A stretch of DNA of 64,000 bases from Candidatus Daviesbacteria bacterium (GTDB lineage: Bacteria > Patescibacteriota > Microgenomatia > Daviesbacterales > UBA10151). The notes under the pieces are model-generated. The model was not told where the DNA came from, did no database searches, and worked only from the letters and a program-made list of their open reading frames with translations. Positions within the stretch are counted from its first letter, which is position 1. Each line of letters opens with the position of its first letter. This document shows positions 1 through 59,271 of the stretch, piece by piece. The position numbers were made by a program, and so were the translations under genes. The stretch spans positions 36,937-100,936 of the forward strand of contig JAUYKM010000011.1 of the NCBI GenBank assembly GCA_030699125.1, given 5' to 3'.

Positions 1-831
1 GGTACTACACCCACAACTGTGGCTTTGGATTTGGCCCTAAATTATATAAAGGAGGATGATTTTGCTGTTTGGTCAGAATTAACAGGACACCTAGCTCAAC
101 TAGATTCACTTTTATCTTATGAAAGCTTTTATGAAAACTTTAGAACTTTTGGCAGAAAAATTTATGTTGGGATTTCGACTAAGATGGATTGGGAAAAAAG
201 GAGTGGAGAAAAACATACTGATGGGCTTTTGCGCGGCATGGTTTTAAATATGTTGGGGAGCTTTGGGGATCAGAAAACTATTAAGAAAGCAAAACTTCTG
301 TTTGGGAAAAAAGTAGATCCTGATATTCGTGGAGTAGTTTACAATCTGGTGGCAGAAAATGGGGGACAATCTGAGTGGAATAATCTGGTTAAGATGTATA
401 AAGATGAAGAAAATCAGCAGGAAAAGGATAGATTAGGCAGAAGCTTAGGTAAATTTAAGAGTAAAACTTTGCTGAAAAAAACTTTAGAGTTTGCAATTTC
501 CAAACATGTCAGGTTTCAAAATACCTTGGGGATTATTTCTTCTGTTTGGGGAAATCCTGAAGGTAGATATTTGGCCTGGGAATTTGTTAAAAAGAATTGG
601 CAGTTATTAAAAGAAAGATATGCCGGCGGGCACTACTTCACCAGAGTTTTTGGTCCGGCAGGGGAGTTTACAAAGAATTCGGATGCAAGAGATATAGAAG
701 AGTTTGTTAAGAAAAACCCGGTCCCGGAGGCCAAAAGAACCATAGCCCAAGCCTTAGAGCAGATTTTTTCAAATGTGGAATGGTTAAAAAGGGATAAAGA
801 AGGAATTAAGAGATTTCTTCAGAAGATCTAG
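1..831 (+). CDS. pepN: Aminopeptidase N (M1 family) C-terminal ERAP1-like domain; 5'-partial, continues upstream of window
   Basis: Frame is open from nt 1. The helical C-terminal region resembles M1 aminopeptidase C-domains. Confidence 0.55.
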   Translation, partial: GTTPTTVALDLALNYIKEDDFAVWSELTGHLAQLDSLLSYESFYENFRTFGRKIYVGISTKMDWEKRSGEKHTDGLLRGMVLNMLGSFGDQKTIKKAKLLFGKKVDPDIRGVVYNLVAENGGQSEWNNLVKMYKDEENQQEKDRLGRSLGKFKSKTLLKKTLEFAISKHVRFQNTLGIISSVWGNPEGRYLAWEFVKKNWQLLKERYAGGHYFTRVFGPAGEFTKNSDARDIEEFVKKNPVPEAKRTIAQALEQIFSNVEWLKRDKEGIKRFLQKI

Positions 832-846
832 TTTAATAAATCTCCC

Positions 847-1206
847 TCAGAGAGAGGATGTGGGAAACATAAGCTTAACTAAGAAATATCCTACAATAAA
901 AGCCCCAACTAATTGTAAAAGTACGGTAATTCTGTATGCATTAATGCCTTCTACTTCATTTTTTGTCATTGAGTAAGTAAGTTTTTCTGCAACTTTCGGA
1001 GGTATTAAAGATAGCAGGAATATAAGCACTAAACCCACAACTAAGAAAATACCAATAATTGGACCAGAGATTCCCCCACCCATTAAAGCACTAAAGCCAC
1101 CAATTAATACAGCCATAATACCAAAAGGAGCTATAAATGCTAATAGTATACTACCAAGAATACTGCATCCAATGATGGTAAACCAGTATTTCACTTTATT
1201 AGACAT
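847..1206 (-). CDS. Small polytopic membrane protein (hypothetical)
   Basis: 119 aa, 3-4 predicted hydrophobic helices, Gly-rich. Confidence 0.4.
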   Translation of the reverse strand: MSNKVKYWFTIIGCSILGSILLAFIAPFGIMAVLIGGFSALMGGGISGPIIGIFLVVGLVLIFLLSLIPPKVAEKLTYSMTKNEVEGINAYRITVLLQLVGAFIVGYFLVKLMFPTSSL

Positions 1207-1221
1207 AATATGACTTTATCA

Positions 1222-1378
1222 TACAGTTATGCTAAAATCTATAAAATATAGCTATTCCGATCCCGGATCGGAAGATATCGCACAACAGGTAATTCTATGA
1301 TAAAATCTGCCAATGGCTTTGAATGTAAATGAGTTAAGAAGCCTCATAATATACCCCTTTAGTAGTGCCTCTTTTTTT
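1222..1378 (+). pseudogene. Diverged duplicate of the efp promoter (TGCTAAAAT + hairpin) and first ~10 codons of efp (MALNVNELR...), terminating after 24 codons
   Basis: nt 1228-1340 align with nt 3398-3500, the true efp promoter and start. Confidence 0.6.
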
Positions 1379-1546
1379 GATTAAACCAGCATCAGTAAGT
1401 TTTTTGATATGATATCGAAGCGTTCGATCCTTTATACCTAAAAATTTTCTTCTAAGCTCTCGCGAACTTATAATTTTATGTTCTCTTATAACTTCCAAAA
1501 TGGCTGCTTGTTTTATAAATAGGGAATCCTCTAAAGACATTACCAT
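1334..1546 (-). CDS. Small winged-helix (MarR/ArsR-like) DNA-binding protein
   Basis: 70 aa with a wHTH-like pattern (SSRELRRKFLGIKDRTLRYHIKKLTDAGLI). Confidence 0.45.
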   Translation of the reverse strand: MVMSLEDSLFIKQAAILEVIREHKIISSRELRRKFLGIKDRTLRYHIKKLTDAGLIKKRGTTKGVYYEAS

Positions 1547-1598
1547 ATATTACCAGATATTACCTAATATTGCCTAATATTGCCAGATATAGAATAAA

Positions 1599-1994
1599 TT
1601 AGGTTAACTCCAGGAGACCTTTTTTAAAATCTAAAGTCAGTTTAAAATGTTTAAGAAAAGATAAACCTAAAAGTCCATCAGCAGGTGTTTCGGGCGGAAG
1701 GTCTTTAACAATAGCCTCCACATTTTTAACTTTCTTTCCTAAAATTCTCATTTCAGGAATAATAATTTTTGATATTGTTTCCACGGTTGAAACAGAAGTT
1801 AGTCTTACAGTATTTTTAGGATCAATAGGTATACCAATTCTAGAAACTAAATCATAGGGGAGTGCAACATAGCTTGCTCCAGTATCTAATATAAGTTTTG
1901 CAGCTGTTGGGAAAGTGGCCTTTATATCTGCAGTGACAATTATAGAAAGAGATTGAGGATTAAATTTTAGCTGGGACATAAAAGAGGAATGCAC
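1599..1994 (-). CDS. Retropepsin-like (clan AA) aspartic protease domain protein
   Basis: LILDTGASYVALP catalytic motif plus GLLGLSFLKHF, typical of bacterial retropepsin-like/TIGR02281 proteins. Confidence 0.7.
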   Translation of the reverse strand: MHSSFMSQLKFNPQSLSIIVTADIKATFPTAAKLILDTGASYVALPYDLVSRIGIPIDPKNTVRLTSVSTVETISKIIIPEMRILGKKVKNVEAIVKDLPPETPADGLLGLSFLKHFKLTLDFKKGLLELT

Positions 1995-2190
1995 CCTTTA
2001 CCTCGCCAGTATATATAGTGGCTATGTGTGTTCCCTTAGGAAGAGTAGGAATCCTCTTATAAAGTTCATAACGATTTTTACTCGCCATAATAGGTTTTAC
2101 ATCTACTAGCTGATTTAGCTTATCCTGTTTTAAAACTTCGGCCAAAACCCAAGTGTTTTTATATTTTTTATTCACTTCGGAGATTTTCAT
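1960..2190 (-). CDS. Hypothetical 76-aa ORF immediately upstream of, and overlapping by 35 nt in the +1 frame, the retropepsin-like ORF
   Basis: The +1 overlap contains U-UUU-U and A-AAA-U runs. It may be the N-terminal part of a frameshifted protease gene. Confidence 0.3.
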   Translation of the reverse strand: MKISEVNKKYKNTWVLAEVLKQDKLNQLVDVKPIMASKNRYELYKRIPTLPKGTHIATIYTGEVKGAFLFYVPAKI

Positions 2191-2212
2191 AATTTCATTA
2201 TAGCACAGAAAA

Positions 2213-2270
2213 ATTCATTCAAATGTGGAATGGTTAAGAAGAGATAAAGAGAGAATTAAATCCTCCTTGA
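2213..2270 (+). pseudogene. Diverged ~58-bp duplicate of the pepN 3' end
   Basis: nt 2213-2270 (ttcaaatgtggaatggttaagaagagataaagagagaattaa) align with nt 776-830. Confidence 0.55.
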
Positions 2271-2303
2271 CAAAGTAGTACCAAATATAGTACCATTTAT
2301 GTA

Positions 2304-2537
2304 GTGACTAAGCGAGAGAAAAGAGTTAGAAAGCTCTTTCAAAATCCAAAAACAGTTCCTTTTAAAGAATTGGATAGAGTTTTAAAAGATGCTGGTTTTA
2401 AAATGAGACAGCCTGGGTCTGGCAGCAGTCACTCTGTTTATACAAAAGGAGAAATTCAAATCTCGGTGCCTTTCAGAAGGCCTTTTGTAAAAGAAGTGTA
2501 TGTTAAAAGAGTTTTGGAATTATTAGGAGAAGAATGA
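2304..2537 (+). CDS. hicA: HicA toxin (mRNA interferase, YcfA-like)
   Basis: 77-aa basic protein with HicA-like SH3/dsRBD pattern (GSGSSHSVYTKG); overlaps the hicB start. Confidence 0.75.
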   Translation: MTKREKRVRKLFQNPKTVPFKELDRVLKDAGFKMRQPGSGSSHSVYTKGEIQISVPFRRPFVKEVYVKRVLELLGEE

Positions 2538-2884
2538 GAAATAAGAATCTTAAATATTATCTCAATTTAGATTACACTATCCGCCTTAAACAAAACGTGG
2601 ATGGAAGTTATTTTGTGGAAATTGAAGAATTACCTGGTTGTATGAGTGAAGGTGATACAAAGATGGATGCTTTGAAGATGATTGAAGATGCCAAAAAAGC
2701 TTGGTTGGAAGTTGCGTTAGCAAGAAAAATAAATATTCCTGAACCGGAAAAAGATGAATTTAGTGGTAAATTAAATGTTAGAATGCCCAAATTCTTGCAT
2801 AGAAAATTGTCATATAAATCAAAACAGGAAGGGGTTAGTTTAAATACCTTAATTTCTACTACTCTAGCTTCCACAATCAGGTAA
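2534..2884 (+). CDS. hicB: HicB antitoxin (UPF0150 fold + C-terminal RHH-like DNA-binding tail)
   Basis: 116 aa. YFVEIEELPGCMSEGDT matches the HicB N-domain. The C-terminal KLNVRMPKFLHRKL is RHH-like. ATGA-coupled to hicA. Confidence 0.75.
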   Translation: MRNKNLKYYLNLDYTIRLKQNVDGSYFVEIEELPGCMSEGDTKMDALKMIEDAKKAWLEVALARKINIPEPEKDEFSGKLNVRMPKFLHRKLSYKSKQEGVSLNTLISTTLASTIR

Positions 2885-2973
2885 AATTCCTAGGTACGAA
2901 CCGTGTGATACATATCCTAGGTGCCTGCCTAATCCACCCCCCAGGTGTACTTCGGACATTGGCAGAATCTACG

Positions 2974-2997
2974 TTTCCACATTCGAAGTGGGAAGCT
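2974..2997. repeat. Family-A palindromic element (TTCCACATTCGAAGTGGGAAGCT), intergenic copy
   Basis: Shares CTACGTTyCCAC...TGGGAAGCT with the copies at 35372, 38300 and 41119. Confidence 0.6.
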
Positions 2998-3048
2998 AAA
3001 TTATAAAGGTGGGGATAGGGAAAAGATTAGAAAATTTTTTTCAGAATT

Positions 3049-3309
3049 TTAAGACTTAGGAGCTTCTTTTATAAAATGTTCTACTAATTGTGAGTCGCCT
3101 TCAAGAAATGTTACAAACAAAGGGGTAGGCATTTGTAGGACTATCTCTCCTTTAGAGTTTTGTAGAACCACTTCAAGATCAGCTGCTGATATTATCTTTA
3201 ATCCTCTCCGAAGAGATAAAGATTGTCTAGTCAGATCACTTACAGATTTTTGTTCTGCCTTTGCTTCAGCTTTCAGAGCAGTTAATTCAGATGAGGATAC
3301 ATCTACCAC
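3049..3309 (-). CDS. Hypothetical 86-aa protein
   Basis: ORF only; no recognisable motif. Confidence 0.3.
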   Translation of the reverse strand: MVDVSSSELTALKAEAKAEQKSVSDLTRQSLSLRRGLKIISAADLEVVLQNSKGEIVLQMPTPLFVTFLEGDSQLVEHFIKEAPKS

Positions 3310-3397
3310 TACTCTTGGTCTATCATTTCTTTCAGACTTTTTTATATTATAGGATAAAGGGTAAAAATTGTCAAGTTTATTGTCCTAAAATCTTTTA

Positions 3398-3465
3398 TTA
3401 TGCTAAAATCTATAAATTAGATCCTTCTCCCGCCTTTGGCGGGATCAGGATGACAGGAGGGGTAT
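3398..3465 (+). promoter_or_regulatory. Putative efp promoter: extended -10 (TGCTAAAAT) followed by GC-rich hairpin CCCGCCTTTGGCGGG
   Basis: TGn+TAAAAT sits 60 nt upstream of the efp ATG. The same module is duplicated at 1228-1290. Confidence 0.45.
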
Positions 3466-4029
3466 ATGGCACTAAATGTAAATGAATTAAGAAATGGGAC
3501 GTTTTTTAAAGAAGGGAAAGATATTTTTTTGGTGGTTACTTATGAACATATGAAAACTGGCCGGGGATCCGGCAATATTAAACTAAAGGTGAGGAATTTA
3601 AGATCCGGGGCAGTGGTGGAGAAATCCTTTATTACCGGAGCCCGGGTGGATGAAGCAAATGTAGAGAAAAAAAAGGCCCAGTTTTTATACCGGGATGGAG
3701 ACATTTTTAATTTTATGGATCCTGTCAGTTTTGAGCAGTTTTCAATTTCTGCCAATGTAGTAGGTGATCAGGCCAAATATTTAAAAGACGGGTTGGAGGT
3801 AACTTTGATTGTTTCTGAGGATGAGGCCTTGGGAATAGAACTTCCTTTAAGTCTGGTATATGAAATCTCGGAAACAGGCCCAGGTGAGCGGGGAAATACT
3901 ATTTCTAATGTTTTTAAAGAAGCAACACTGGATAATGGATTGGTTGTAAAAGTCCCTATGTTTATTGGTGTTGGAGAACATGTTAAGATTGATATCAGGT
4001 CAGGAGAATATGTGGAGAGAGTAAAATGA
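3466..4029 (+). CDS. efp: Elongation factor P
   Basis: 187 aa with full-length EF-P architecture and motifs (KTGRGSGNIKLKVRNLRSG, OB folds). Confidence 0.9.
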   Translation: MALNVNELRNGTFFKEGKDIFLVVTYEHMKTGRGSGNIKLKVRNLRSGAVVEKSFITGARVDEANVEKKKAQFLYRDGDIFNFMDPVSFEQFSISANVVGDQAKYLKDGLEVTLIVSEDEALGIELPLSLVYEISETGPGERGNTISNVFKEATLDNGLVVKVPMFIGVGEHVKIDIRSGEYVERVK

Positions 4030-4913
4030 CAAAAAAGATAACTAAAGCTTTAATACCTGCTGCCGGGTTTGGAACCAGGTTTTTACCCCAAACCAAGGCC
4101 ATGCCTAAGGAGATGTTGCCCATTGTAGATAAGCCAGTCATCCAATATGTGGTGGAGGAGGTGGTAGCCTCCGGAATAGATAACATAATTATTGTCACAG
4201 GAGCCACCAAGAGAGCGATTGAGGATCACTTTGATGAACCTAACGAGGATTTGGTACAAAATTTGGTCAATGGTAAAAAAGAAGAACTCCTAAAGCAAAT
4301 CAAACATATTTCTGATATGGCCAATTTTATTTATGTCAGACAAAAAGGTCCTTACGGCAATGGTACCCCTGTTTTGGCAGGAGAACCTGTTATTGAGGAT
4401 GAACCATTTGCCGTAATCTGGGGAGATGAGTTTATTCTGGCAGATCCACCAAGGTTAAAACAGATGATTGATGTGTATGAAAAATACGGCGGGATGATAA
4501 TATCCGGTGTAAAAATAGAAAAAAAAGAAGATTTAAAAAGATATGGTATTGCTGATTTGGAGAGCGTTGAGGGAAATGTTTTTAAGATTAAAAAGATTGT
4601 GGAGAAACCTGATCCGGAGCATGCTCCATCAGACATTGCCACTCATGGCGCCTATATTTTGCCTCCGGAAATCTTTGGGGCTCTTAAGAGTTTAACTCCA
4701 ACTCAGGGTGGAGAAATTTGGCTTACAGATGCCATTAACAAGCTTAAAGAAGAAGGCGTTCCTCTTTATACAGTGGTAATTGAAAATGGCAAATATTATG
4801 ATACCGGTAATAAGTTAGAATATATGAAAACTGTGGCTGAGCTGGCTTTACAACACCCTGAAGTGGGAGAAGAATTTAAAGCATACCTCAAAGAATTAGT
4901 GGGCAAATCTTAA
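4026..4913 (+). CDS. galU: UTP--glucose-1-phosphate uridylyltransferase
   Basis: N-terminal [34 protein letters not shown] signature. ATGA-coupled to efp. Confidence 0.9.
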   Translation: [295 protein letters not shown]

Positions 4914-57348: not shown

Positions 57349-57583
57349 CAGTCGGTTCTGCCAGAGTCAAATTCACTCTGACGTTTTCCGTAATTGCCCT
57401 CACTGTTAAAAGTCTTCTGATTGATCTGATGGTTTGTCCCCCTTTACCAATGATCAGGCCCATATCTTGAGGGTCCACTGTTAGTGTAAGATTGATTGAG
57501 CCATCCTCTTTTTGTTCATCAATTGTGATAGCATCAGGTTTAGAAACTAGGTTTTTAACAATAAACTCAAGCAGTTCCTTCAT
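57314..57583 (-). CDS. KH-domain RNA-binding protein (YlqC/UPF0109-like)
   Basis: LIIGKGGQTIRSIRRLL KH GXXG motif; sits between rpsP and trmD as in the rpsP-ylqC-rimM-trmD operon. Confidence 0.75.
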   Translation of the reverse strand: MKELLEFIVKNLVSKPDAITIDEQKEDGSINLTLTVDPQDMGLIIGKGGQTIRSIRRLLTVRAITENVRVNLTLAEPTGVTSTEVTSDK

Positions 57584-58034
57584 TTTTTATTTCCTCTTTC
57601 GGTGCTTCGGCCTCCTTCTGATCCACTGATTCAGTGGCTTCTGATTCTACCTCTTTTGCAGGGGCTTCTTTTGTTTTTTGTTCATCTGCGGGTTGTTCTG
57701 ATGAGGTTGGTTCAGCTGTTTCTGTCTTTTCTGCTATCTGAGGACTGATAGCTGCTGGCTGTTCTTCTTTCTTTTCCTTCTTAGGCTTTCTGGGTAGCCT
57801 TTGGGGGGCTTTGCCAATAATTCTTAAAAATCCAGTACTCATCTGGGCTCCCTGCTTTGTCCAATGATCAATTCTATCTTGCTTAAGCTTGATATCTTTT
57901 GGTTCGGTTAAAGGATTATAAGTTCCCAAAAGTTCCAAATAAGCACCGGTTCTTTTGGCCCGTTCATCAACCACTACCACCCGATAGAATGGCCTCTTCT
58001 TTGCCCCTATTCTCATTAAACGGATTTTTAACAT
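57567..58034 (-). CDS. rpsP: 30S ribosomal protein S16 with Ala/Glu/Lys-rich C-terminal extension
   Basis: MLKIRLMRIGAKKRPFYRVVVVD... Confidence 0.9.
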   Translation of the reverse strand: MLKIRLMRIGAKKRPFYRVVVVDERAKRTGAYLELLGTYNPLTEPKDIKLKQDRIDHWTKQGAQMSTGFLRIIGKAPQRLPRKPKKEKKEEQPAAISPQIAEKTETAEPTSSEQPADEQKTKEAPAKEVESEATESVDQKEAEAPKEEIKNEGTA

Positions 58035-58052
58035 GGAGGTAAGTATAAAGGA

Positions 58053-58466
58053 TTAGTGGATATCTTTCAATAGCTGAACGAACTTGAATTTTGTAGCTCC
58101 AGCAAACTTTTCATCAGCCGTGATCAACCTTGCCTTATATTTCTTAGCAACAACTGCATATAACATATCATAAACTGAAGTATGATACTTTTTAGCTAGG
58201 CGCGATGCATCTTTTAGATCTTTTTCCACCGGATGATAAATATGTAAGTCTATCTGATAAAGTCTGGTTAAGGCGTTGGTTATTTTCCAAAGGCTAATAA
58301 TACCTTTTGTCACTAAGGTATTGGCAACCTCATAAAAAAGAAATTCAGGAACAAGAGTTTCCTGGGTTTGTAATATGTGGTTTCGAAAGATTTTAGAAGC
58401 GAGGAAGTGACCCTCTTCATGAGGTAGAAACAGTTTGTTAGCAACCGAAGCATCTATGACGGTCAT
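58053..58466 (-). CDS. vapC: PIN-domain ribonuclease toxin (VapC-like)
   Basis: MTVIDASVANKLF N-terminal Asp plus downstream acidic residues in a PIN arrangement. Confidence 0.7.
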   Translation of the reverse strand: MTVIDASVANKLFLPHEEGHFLASKIFRNHILQTQETLVPEFLFYEVANTLVTKGIISLWKITNALTRLYQIDLHIYHPVEKDLKDASRLAKKYHTSVYDMLYAVVAKKYKARLITADEKFAGATKFKFVQLLKDIH

Positions 58467-58736
58467 TTAGGAATACCTGATCTCGCGTAGGGCTTTCACA
58501 GAGTCAAAATCCTTACCTACCTCTTTGGAAATTTCTCTGCCAAGTTGTTCTAGCTCTTTCATGAATTTATCTACGTCTTTGATTTTCCTGTTTTTAACTT
58601 CCTTTTCTTTGTCGATGTTTTTAGAAGTAGCTTCACGTACTATTTTTGCCAGACTTTTTCTTTCTTTGAAAGCCTTAAGCTTGAGCTTCTTATATTGATC
58701 CTCAGGAAACCTGATGTTGGTGGATACCCAGTTCAC
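58467..58736 (-). CDS. Ribbon-helix-helix (CopG/VapB-like) antitoxin
   Basis: Abuts vapC. STNIRFPEDQYKKLKLKAFKERKSLAKIVREA is an RHH pattern. Confidence 0.55.
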   Translation of the reverse strand: MNWVSTNIRFPEDQYKKLKLKAFKERKSLAKIVREATSKNIDKEKEVKNRKIKDVDKFMKELEQLGREISKEVGKDFDSVKALREIRYS

Positions 58737-58791
58737 GTTTTTAATTCCTCCTTAAAAATATAATAGCCTTAGAATTAAAAAGGCAAGGTTC

Positions 58792-58846
58792 TGCAAGCAC
58801 GAGCTAAAATATCTCATAGCGAAGTGCGAAGCAGGTCCTTATAGTA
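58792..58846. repeat. Family-B MITE-like element, intergenic inverted copy of the 48523-48573 element
   Basis: GGTTCTGCAAGCACGAGC...GCGAAGTGCGAAGCAGGTCC; ~75% identity to the reverse complement of the pilin-leader copy. Confidence 0.6.
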
Positions 58847-58868
58847 TATTGGTATTATTATACCATTA

Positions 58869-58946
58869 TATAATGATACTAAAATTAGTCAAACCACTGA
58901 ATGGCCTCTTCTTTGTCCCTATTCTCATTAATCTAATTTTTAGCAT
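58869..58946 (-). pseudogene. Diverged duplicate of the rpsP 5' end (MLKIRLMRIGTKKRPFS...)
   Basis: nt 58899-58962 are ~85% identical to nt 57987-58050. Confidence 0.6.
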
Positions 58947-59271
58947 GGACATAAGTATAGCTTAAGCTGGATCAAGCGTCAATAAAGAAACTAGAATTAT
59001 AAACGACCTATAATATTGATATTTAAATTCAAATTTGATAAAATTAACAATAATATGGTTGAAAATAAGGATAATATTTATTTTGGAGGTATTTACTTTG
59101 ATCAAAGAAAAGGTTTGGAAGGTGTCGTGAAGCTCCTTGTTTCTAGCCTGCTTGCACCTGGTGTAGCCCAACTGCCAGATCCTCCACGCTTACCAGATAC
59201 TAGGGAATATTTGTATTTAAAAAATATCTATGATTTATGCCAGACCTACCAAAAAAAAGGTGGTAGAGTAA

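Follow-up and report, generated by a model that had tools for sequence, protein, structure and literature searches.

How do genomes as tiny and streamlined as those of Patescibacteria (the Candidate Phyla Radiation), in which the gain of accessory genes is little understood, acquire toxin-antitoxin (TA)-type modules at one fixed gap between housekeeping genes when no mobility gene can be seen close by? The question is raised by the spacer between pepN, coding for an M1 aminopeptidase, and efp, coding for elongation factor P, at the start of a 64,000-nucleotide (nt) stretch of a Candidatus Daviesbacteria metagenome-assembled genome (MAG; GCA_030699125.1, contig JAUYKM010000011.1, positions 36,937–100,936), here called the window. 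An earlier note made from these letters alone had described the spacer as a mosaic hotspot of cassettes bracketed by duplicated ends of both genes. Comparison with related loci provided good support for this view: the pepN-efp spacer is a real recombination hotspot in which TA-type cassettes are stacked and displaced gene ends are left behind as scars.

Empty, single and stacked states of the pepN-efp junction

Loci around relatives of efp were retrieved from genomes (63 loci) and metagenomes (80 loci) and are cited by number (L). Fifty-six Daviesbacteria-like loci with both genes on one contig made up the set used for comparing the pepN-efp spacer. In the window, the left core gene is represented by the 3′ part of pepN (19–831, plus strand; Pfam ERAP1_C, E=1e-59, match ending at residue 249 of 270), identified also by its synteny in the 56 loci, and the right core gene is a functional efp (3376–4029, plus strand; coding sequence 3466–4029; Pfam EFP_N, EFP and Elong-fact-P_C), whose product is 79–88% identical to that of many Daviesbacteria MAGs. 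Measured from the pepN stop to the efp ATG, spacer lengths among the 56 loci lay between −11 nt, an overlap, and 3,747 nt; the 2,634-nt spacer of the window (pepN end 831 to efp ATG 3466) was the second longest. The empty junctions that the hotspot reading called for were found in 17 of the 56 loci, which had spacers of ≤200 nt with a single pepN tail and a single efp head. In these short spacers, pepN leads into a conserved hairpin element, beyond which a −10 box, TGnTAAAAT, stands only 6–10 nt ahead of the efp ATG.

Several components of the window spacer were found at the same site as the only cassette: an aspartic protease gene with its partner orf76 in L074 and L149, the toxin-antitoxin pair hicAB in L011 and L098 (hicB alone in L071 and L108), and a full-length Fic gene preceded by 10-nt repeats in L015 and L087. 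Other loci carried stacked arrays. The closest relatives by efp (88%), L065 and L066, have the layout pepN with a hicAB-type tail, hicAB, a displaced pepN tail followed by the hairpin element, the efp promoter and a displaced efp head, then a DUF2283/PBECR nuclease cassette, another displaced pepN tail, orf151 and efp, and therefore hold within the array an entire empty junction. In L146, pepN is followed by hicAB, orf316, Fic-repeats-protease-orf76, a displaced pepN tail, orf118 and efp; the window shares with it the Fic-protease-orf76 block followed by a displaced tail, with an identical junction between orf76 and the tail, but carries its hicAB on the efp side instead. Together, more than 60 genomes and metagenome contigs provide a natural series from empty through single to stacked and permuted arrays. 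Empty junctions, separable cassettes and recurrent gene-end fragments at the seams indicate that repeated recombination at this site, one of the two origins offered by the earlier note, is the right reading.

The window comes from a MAG, and strain-variant hotspots are prone to mis-assembly, which raises the possibility of an assembly or binning artefact joining strain variants. However, contigs built by a different assembler from run SRR13727534 matched window positions 1–2360 (L158) and 2333–4067 (L001) at 100%, and the recovery of every junction by this second assembler showed that the structure was not the artefact of one program. The duplicated fragments, at 22–47 nt and 86–95% identity, are so short and diverged that they would not mislead an assembler, and equally complex arrays were present in independent datasets (L065/L066; L014/L088/L089). 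We consider an artefact barely credible. An exact-protein look-up of efp returned one short contig only, so that no near-identical strain with a different spacer was available for comparison.

Not all variation in this region bears gene-end repeats. None were found at seven insertions without recognisable TA genes (L005, L009, L013, L019, L083, L096 and L102), and the neighbouring efp-galU and galU-orf146 junctions also hold 1.4–3.4-kb insertions in some genomes, again without such repeats. Insertions near the hotspot include L009 8561–11964, L096 812–2244 and those of L013 and L085 between galU and orf146. In six other loci (L010, L016, L024, L026, L027 and L099) a tRNA-Leu(caa) gene on the minus strand replaces pepN upstream of efp. 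tRNA-linked integration was considered and rejected: this tRNA represents an alternative synteny rather than an attachment (att) site, and the window contains no tRNA.

Displaced ends of pepN and efp

The genuine pepN tail of the window (A; 757–831, plus strand), delimited by sequence comparison, contains a core, AATGTGGAATGGTTAAAAAG, at 772–791, followed by the last ~15 codons, which vary between alleles. Pairwise identity of pepN among loci was 0.8–0.89 up to the core and 0.89 at the core itself, and then fell to 0.73, 0.59, 0.57 and 0.29, making the core the last well-conserved block of the gene. A displaced tail (A′; plus strand), recognised by alignment to the window and to other genomes, carries the core at 2222–2241 and its own stop codon, TAG, at 2273–2275. 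The ungapped alignment of 763–809 with 2213–2259 showed 87% identity over 47 nt, and its score of 64 far exceeded those of 500 shuffles (mean 16.5, s.d. 2.4, maximum 26). The diverged pepN 3′ end that the earlier note had placed at 2213–2270 is thus real and slightly longer, comparison with other genomes setting its limits at about 2203 to 2275.

The origin of A′ was indicated by its allele, the hicAB-linked “...SSLTK*”. Similarity to A ends after the 47 nt, and the unrelated last 20 nt of A′ match instead the hicAB-linked tail “...LLTK*”, the final codons of which form the −35 box TTGACA (2267–2272) of the hicAB promoter (promoter-like site 2267–2296). Over 69 nt, A′ shares 88% identity with the genuine tails of pepN in L065 and L071, compared to 78% with the window’s own A. 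In L011, L065 and L146, the A′ sequence forms the genuine end of pepN and leads into hicAB, and window positions 2203–2874 are colinear, at 79% identity, with the genuine pepN end and hicAB of L011 (7027–7712).

A comparable relation was observed on the efp side. The displaced head (B′; 1227–1340, plus strand), defined by alignment to the window and to efp 5′ regions of other genomes, consists of a promoter block TTATGCTAAAATCTATAAA (1227–1248), a GC hairpin (~1255–1273), a leaderless-type −10 box TGATAAAAT (1298–1306) and efp codons 1–9 (1313–1340). Its promoter block is 95% identical over 22 nt to 3398–3419 of the resident head (B), including TGCTAAAAT, with an alignment score of 39 versus a shuffle mean of 17.3 and maximum of 32; its coding block is 86% identical over 28 nt to 3466–3493, both encoding MALNVNELR. 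The two copies of the efp promoter and first codons reported before were therefore borne out, and as with pepN the alignment scores lay well beyond chance similarity. The claim of a GC hairpin shared by both heads held for its presence between the two blocks (~3428–3444 in B) but not for its sequence, which differs. Upstream of efp, B has the promoter TGCTAAAAT at 3401–3409, the hairpin in the 5′ untranslated region (UTR) and the Shine-Dalgarno sequence AGGAGG, an allele in common with L016 (85.7%); the 5′-UTR hairpin was the sole fold modestly better than shuffles (z = −2.2). In contrast, B′ is 82–88% identical over 57 nt to the efp 5′ regions of L112, L065, L074 and L010 and 63% identical to B.

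Most relatives have a leaderless-type efp promoter, with the −10 box TGnTAAAAT 6–10 nt before the ATG (L002, L004, L023, L025, L028, L070 and L074; window 1296–1315), and in L070, L071 and L108 the hicB stop lies inside or just upstream of this box. B′ keeps its promoter and start codon and opens a 23-amino-acid (aa) reading frame, MALNVNELRSLIIYPFSSASFFD (1313–1384), antisense into the 3′ end of the winged helix-turn-helix (wHTH) gene described below. Transcription from B′ would oppose the wHTH, protease and orf76 genes.

Direct repeats in this order could also result from in-situ tandem duplication of the segment from pepN tail to efp head, with insertions and deletions then arising separately in the two copies, and the near identity of the B and B′ promoter blocks is in line with such an origin. 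The copies, however, are nearer to alleles of other genomes than to each other, A and A′ being unrelated beyond 47 nt; no direct B′-A′ junction was found in the window or in any locus; and each cassette occurs singly elsewhere. We rejected tandem duplication on the allele identities and regard it as very improbable. The foreign-allele identity of A′ and B′ could also come from later allelic replacement of one copy.

Extra pepN tails, all in direct orientation, were present in at least 15 loci (L012, L014/L088/L089, L015, L017, L094, L065/L066, L067, L070, L145, L146 and L016/L112), which agrees with the claim that duplicated gene ends bracket the cassettes: the fragments mark seams and recur in other genomes. 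L065 and L066 contain two extra copies each, hence three tails in one array, together with extra efp heads (codons 1–15), and the copy in L145 is truncated. L016 and L112 have an extra tail though tRNA-Leu, not pepN, sits upstream. This 55-nt tail fragment, kept upstream of efp beside the tRNA gene, points either to transfer of a segment comprising tail and efp or to loss or relocation of pepN. In L103, a Fic cassette lies between two copies of the post-pepN hairpin element, not between pepN tails, which indicates that the position of the join is not fixed.

Cassettes of the window spacer

The cargo named in the earlier note, a wHTH protein, a retropepsin-like aspartic protease and HicAB, was confirmed by profile searches, and three further items were added to it (orf76, a ribbon-helix-helix (RHH)-like reading frame and the hairpin element). 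The first gene after pepN codes for a predicted 119-aa membrane protein (847–1206, minus strand; identified as an open reading frame, ORF) with no Pfam or NCBIfam match and no homologue in the related loci. It is followed, beyond B′, by a 70-aa winged-helix ORF (1334–1546, minus strand; Pfam HTH_20/HTH_24). The product of this ORF is 56–59% identical to the C-termini of 337–380-aa Fic proteins in L014, L015, L094 and L146, and its region shows DNA homology to L015 6819–6978, which identifies it as the C-terminal remnant of a Fic gene from which ~840 nt (Fic_N and the Fic core), between the upstream repeats and the wHTH, have been deleted.

A self-repeat scan located these repeats, 5–6 tandem 10-nt copies resembling ATTACCAGAT, at 1539–1599, directly upstream of the wHTH/Fic gene, and homologous repeats precede Fic in L014, L015, L087, L094, L103 and L146. 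Throughout the family, 5–7 tandem units (ATTACCAGAT or ATTGCCTAAT) lie directly upstream of every Fic/wHTH gene (for example L014 4463–4534 and L146 1238–1288), with a period equal to one helical turn. The repeats are probably the operator of the wHTH/Fic gene.

The next two genes form a separate unit. A clan AA (retropepsin-like) aspartic protease (1599–1994, minus strand, likely start ATG at 1979; Pfam Asp_protease_2, E=1e-14; TIGR02281) overlaps orf76 (1960–2190, minus strand), which codes for a 76-aa partner known from 77 homologue clusters; all homologues with a named source were from Daviesbacteria or Patescibacteria. The protease adjoined orf76 in 10 of 10 contexts inspected, comprising the pepN-efp junction and at least five unrelated sites (L147, L148 and L150–L153 among the loci), sometimes beside Fic. 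Where the pair is the only cassette (L074, L149), amino-acid identity to the window is 78–84%, the protease of L074 being 78% identical. The two genes thus behave as a mobile module, restricted to Patescibacteria and moving like a TA system, and they may be a new TA- or defence-like pair. No Pfam or NCBIfam match was obtained for orf76, and its confident AlphaFold2 model (predicted local distance difference test score 89.9) had no fold match in the PDB at E<0.001. At other sites of the module, the flanking repeats amounted to unconvincing 13–22-nt matches resembling promoters or ribosome-binding sites, and at five such sites no pepN core was found nearby.

Beyond A′, hicA (2304–2537, plus strand; Pfam HicA_toxin, E=1e-4) and hicB (2534–2884, plus strand; Pfam HicB, E=4e-11) correspond to pairs of 84–91% identity located immediately between the two core genes in L011, L065 and L098; in L070, hicAB abuts efp after other cassettes. 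The hicB gene runs into the conserved hairpin spacer element (2885–3003, plus strand; CCTAGGTG...CCACCCCCCAGGTG; TTCCACATTCGAAGTGGGAA), recognised by homology to L006 and L021. This element directly follows the pepN stop in L002, L003, L006, L017, L018, L065, L092 and L103. It consists of AAAATCCnnAGGTG...CCACCyc..GGTGG and a second part, TTCCCACATCCGAAGTGGGAA, present in some loci, and a further copy lies at L006 6743–6773. The element could be a terminator or a repeat of the repetitive extragenic palindromic type; at 2885–3003 it had no Rfam match and a fold energy no better than that of shuffles. Rfam scans of the whole window at the gathering threshold and of 700–3600 in E-value mode detected no known RNA, so the hairpins of the locus do not belong to a described RNA family. 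The last cassette gene before efp, orf86 (3049–3309, minus strand), encodes an 86-aa orphan with weak RHH/RelB-like matches (Pfam NikA-like, E=0.011; NCBIfam RelB_antitoxin, E=0.03), and a promoter scan placed a perfect TTGACA-17-TATAAT promoter at 3374–3346 on the minus strand.

A second locus and other features of the window

A repeat scan of the whole window revealed a second, independent locus with the gene-end-duplication signature (region 57567–58959). There, a 61-nt direct repeat (57987–58047 and 58899–58959, 89% identity), consisting of codons 1–16 of rpsP (ribosomal protein S16) and 13 upstream nt with a TATACT −10 box, brackets vapBC, that is, a PIN-domain toxin VapC (58053–58466, minus strand) and its associated antitoxin (58467–58736, minus strand). 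The same rpsP duplication was found in L154, the VapC of which is 81% identical; L156 and L157 have vapBC beside rpsP without the duplication. The distal rpsP start retains its native upstream region and begins an ORF of 26 aa, and five of its six differences from the distal copy of L154 are synonymous.

Elsewhere in the window, five genes between 45862 and 51957 start with the same 45-nt motif, encoding a type IV pilin-like N-terminus (KGFTLIELLVV...), and form a cluster of pilin or pseudopilin paralogues. A dif/Xer-like site at the pepN-efp locus was considered and rejected, the resemblance to the dif consensus being weak; the cumulative GC skew was still rising throughout the first 8 kb, giving no sign of a terminus at the locus.

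Recombination at the hotspot

What process would stack foreign alleles beside resident ones? We favour, with modest confidence, repeated recombination that is homologous on one side and illegitimate on the other, each round displacing a resident gene end. DNA of a relative would bring one core gene, its end and the adjoining cassette, and its homologous pairing would be confined to one side, either pepN or efp, while its far end would be joined by a few bases of microhomology beside the resident allele without replacing it. The intact end of the core gene would then derive from the incoming DNA, and the resident fragment, with any cassettes, would be pushed inward as a scar.

Applied to the window, such events would start from a state like that of L011 or L065, pepN with the hicAB-type tail, hicAB, hairpin element, orf86 and efp. 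An incoming pepN tail with the Fic-repeats-protease-orf76 block would displace the old tail, creating A′; an internal deletion would then cut Fic to the 70-aa wHTH; and incoming DNA with a pepN tail, the membrane protein gene, the efp promoter and efp codons 1–9 would join at TTAAGAA to the overlap of pepN stop and Fic stop, creating B′. The displaced scars would thereby record the order in which the cassettes arrived. Being short (<100 nt) and diverged, the repeats could escape deletion, and TA cargo might further penalise loss.

The sequences at the seams are consistent with such joins. TTAAGAA, the end of B′ (efp codons 8–9), is also the end of the Fic cassette, which in L015 overlaps the pepN stop. 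The hicB gene of L065 runs into the efp −10 box (TGATAAAATTC, found likewise in L070 and L071), and this box meets the displaced tail at ATTC; the displaced head adjoins the next cassette at TTTAAA. Each of these microhomologies, 4–7 nt long, is short enough to be due to chance individually.

Several observations weigh against this explanation. The left boundaries of the extra tails all lie, in each of six junction families, between −20 and +2 nt from the core, three of them at −14 to −16. No extra tail starting upstream of −20 was found, and neither were core-less tail fragments, for which starts from +2 to +22 would have been detectable. Random illegitimate joins would not obviously be expected to cluster in this way. 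The boundary coincides with a 6-3-6 palindrome, ATTCCA-ATG-TGGAAT; the exact core occurs in the scar-bearing genomes and synonymous variants of it in many scar-free ones; and the left end of the protease cassette is preceded by a truncated core (AAAT/AAATG) in two contexts, the window and L145. In addition, the natural competence of these organisms is an assumption, and the order of events is a reconstruction, since other orders or a circular intermediate would give the same product. Shared ancestry of junctions, the place of the core as the final homologous block, and recruitment of the tail as a cassette promoter could all contribute to the clustering.

The clustered boundaries, the palindrome, the exact core and the truncated core are what would be expected if a tyrosine or serine recombinase encoded elsewhere, or by a phage or an integrative and conjugative element (ICE), acted at a core-centred site, ATTCCAATGTGGAATGGTTAAAAAG, and serially integrated cassette circles, each leaving a copy from core to stop, as in integron arrays or in the accretion of integrase-less cis-mobilizable elements (CIMEs). 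Up to three tails in one array (L065), and a 15/20 match between the cores of A′ and B′, a level that just two non-self matches reached among 128,000 positions, point in this direction as well. The match between the two cores, however, stems partly from the junction base and from substitutions specific to the alleles, and the genuine sequences of pepN and efp agree at only 12 of 20 positions. Every extra tail carries the core (0–4 mismatches); the core, though, closes the conserved part of pepN, and ancestry may be common to the junction families. The crossover was also not nucleotide-precise: the seams vary over up to 20 nt and fall at diverse microhomologies. The cassette-side sequences beside the tail-copy junctions shared no motif, and no element resembling attC or attP was seen there, although one arm of such a site should be conserved on the cassette side of A′. 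The hairpin bracket of L103, the vapBC duplication at rpsP with its unrelated sequence, and the five sites of the protease module lacking a nearby core further argue against dependence on this site. Pfam and NCBIfam searches of the window spacer gave no integrase or transposase, and none was seen in the inspected spacers and flanks (56 syntenic loci and the orf76 and vapC contexts), where not every ORF was scanned and no genome-wide search for a trans-encoded enzyme was made.

We consider serial integration of this kind, like any trans-acting site-specific enzyme at the pepN core, unlikely. Unlikely, too, is an integron-like but attC-less capture system of Daviesbacteria, in which a recombinase encoded elsewhere would read the partly palindromic pepN-tail core (ATTCCAATGTGGAATGGTTAAAAAG), and possibly a related efp-head sequence, to insert and shuffle TA-type cassettes with replacement gene ends; if true, it would constitute a new site-specific gene-capture platform in the Candidate Phyla Radiation. 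The tight clustering of scar boundaries at a conserved block is a hint of sequence preference in the recombination.

The order A...B′...A′...B, circularly permuted relative to the chromosome, had led the earlier note to suggest site-specific integration of a circular element. As the primary reading, a single such integration was not supported: the cargo between B′ and A′ is composite, made of the Fic remnant with its 10-nt repeats and of the separate protease-orf76 module, A′ is linked to hicAB and B′ to the membrane-protein side, and no integrase or transposase was seen in the spacers inspected, where not every ORF was scanned. A Campbell-type insertion, in which a circularised fragment of a relative (cargo, pepN tail, spacer and efp head) would integrate by a single crossover in the short junction homology, would produce exactly this order and could also explain the complete embedded empty junction of L065, and the direct repeats around cassettes could loop out circles. 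Linear one-sided recombination, however, would give an identical product, which makes the two inseparable by sequence alone and leaves nothing that specifically favours the circle. The available homology (50–100 nt at ~85%) is poor for RecA, and the same composite cargo, with A′ tied to hicAB, fits a single circle badly. The cassettes which the note proposed to look for elsewhere or on extrachromosomal contigs were found in other genomes and at other sites, but no circular or extrachromosomal contig carrying them was found. We regard the Campbell route as distinctly unlikely. For one-sided recombination, which we prefer, the route taken, the succession of events and the stabilisation by TA cargo are what we infer.

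Discussion

Long target duplication offers the first comparison. Nobusato and colleagues, in 2000, reportedly described insertion with long target duplication for complexes of restriction-modification (RM) genes. The pepN-efp locus resembles these events in that small selfish or addiction units lie between direct repeats which are single-copy in empty relatives and often cover a gene start or stop; both vapBC at rpsP (61 nt) and the pairs of pepN tails (47–75 nt) fit this description. RM genes have been found inserted with target duplications of 46–423 bp that cover the start or stop of a gene; mobility genes are absent, and the cases come mainly from competent species (PMC2853133, Furuta, Abe & Kobayashi 2010). 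Set against the features by which those insertions were recognised, the window has flanking direct repeats of more than 30 bp (47 nt for A/A′ and 61 nt at rpsP; the B/B′ blocks of 22 and 28 nt are split by the variable hairpin), empty sites with the repeat present once (17 of 56 loci), and an insert of less than 20 kb without mobility genes (2.6-kb spacer). Unlike RM insertions, its cargo is TA-type rather than RM (HicAB, the Fic remnant, protease and orf76, the RHH orphan and the membrane protein), several cassettes are stacked, both flanking genes have left fragments, which stand in permuted order, and the host is a Patescibacterium. The repeats are also not near-identical copies of one target but different alleles, A′ and B′ being closer to foreign sequences (88%) than to the local ones (63–78%).

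The second comparison is with polymorphic toxin loci. Arrays of orphan type VI secretion system (T6SS) and Rhs modules have been attributed to homology-facilitated illegitimate recombination (PMC5361080, Kirchberger et al. 2017), and C-terminal displacement in contact-dependent inhibition (CDI) and Rhs systems is credited there to earlier work (Jackson et al. 2009, as cited in PMC5361080). Like these genes, pepN combines a conserved body with a 3′ tip that varies (identity 0.8–0.89 to the core, 0.29 at the end); a new tip brings linked small genes, and the old tip is orphaned downstream with a short conserved stretch, so that arrays build up. The orphaned tails all keep the core and match full-length foreign alleles (A′ at 88% to L065/L071), and the joints show microhomology (7 nt of TTAAGAA; ATTC and TTTAAA in L065), though each is short and could singly be due to chance. 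A process of this type would depend on DNA uptake and on RecA-mediated one-sided pairing. The locus differs in that pepN is a housekeeping peptidase whose tail is no toxin domain, in that the linked genes are autonomous TA-type cassettes, mostly on the opposite strand, and in that the efp side is displaced too, giving 5′ fragments.

Two further systems build arrays from small units. Integron arrays and clusters of attC sites lacking integron-integrases (CALINs) consist of small, often promoter-poor, TA-rich cassettes with a recurring separator and an order shuffled between genomes. The Daviesbacteria arrays share the small TA-rich cassettes, the recurring separator and the shuffled order, but their separator is a host-gene fragment and not an attC hairpin, there is no intI nearby, the cassette ends have no common motif, and the cassettes lie in both orientations. 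Accretion of ICEs and CIMEs, and islands containing tRNA 3′ halves, leave one copy of the target 3′ end per integrated unit, in direct orientation, as do the repeated pepN tails. In the Daviesbacteria arrays, by contrast, none of the units, which measure 0.4–1.3 kb, was seen to carry an integrase, their boundaries are imprecise, and scars of 5′ ends (efp, rpsP) occur as well. Taken together, these comparisons identify the locus as a variant of known recombination-hotspot phenomena, not a new type of mobile element. Long target duplication and C-terminal displacement, described at RM and polymorphic-toxin loci, are extended by it to ordinary housekeeping genes with TA cargo.

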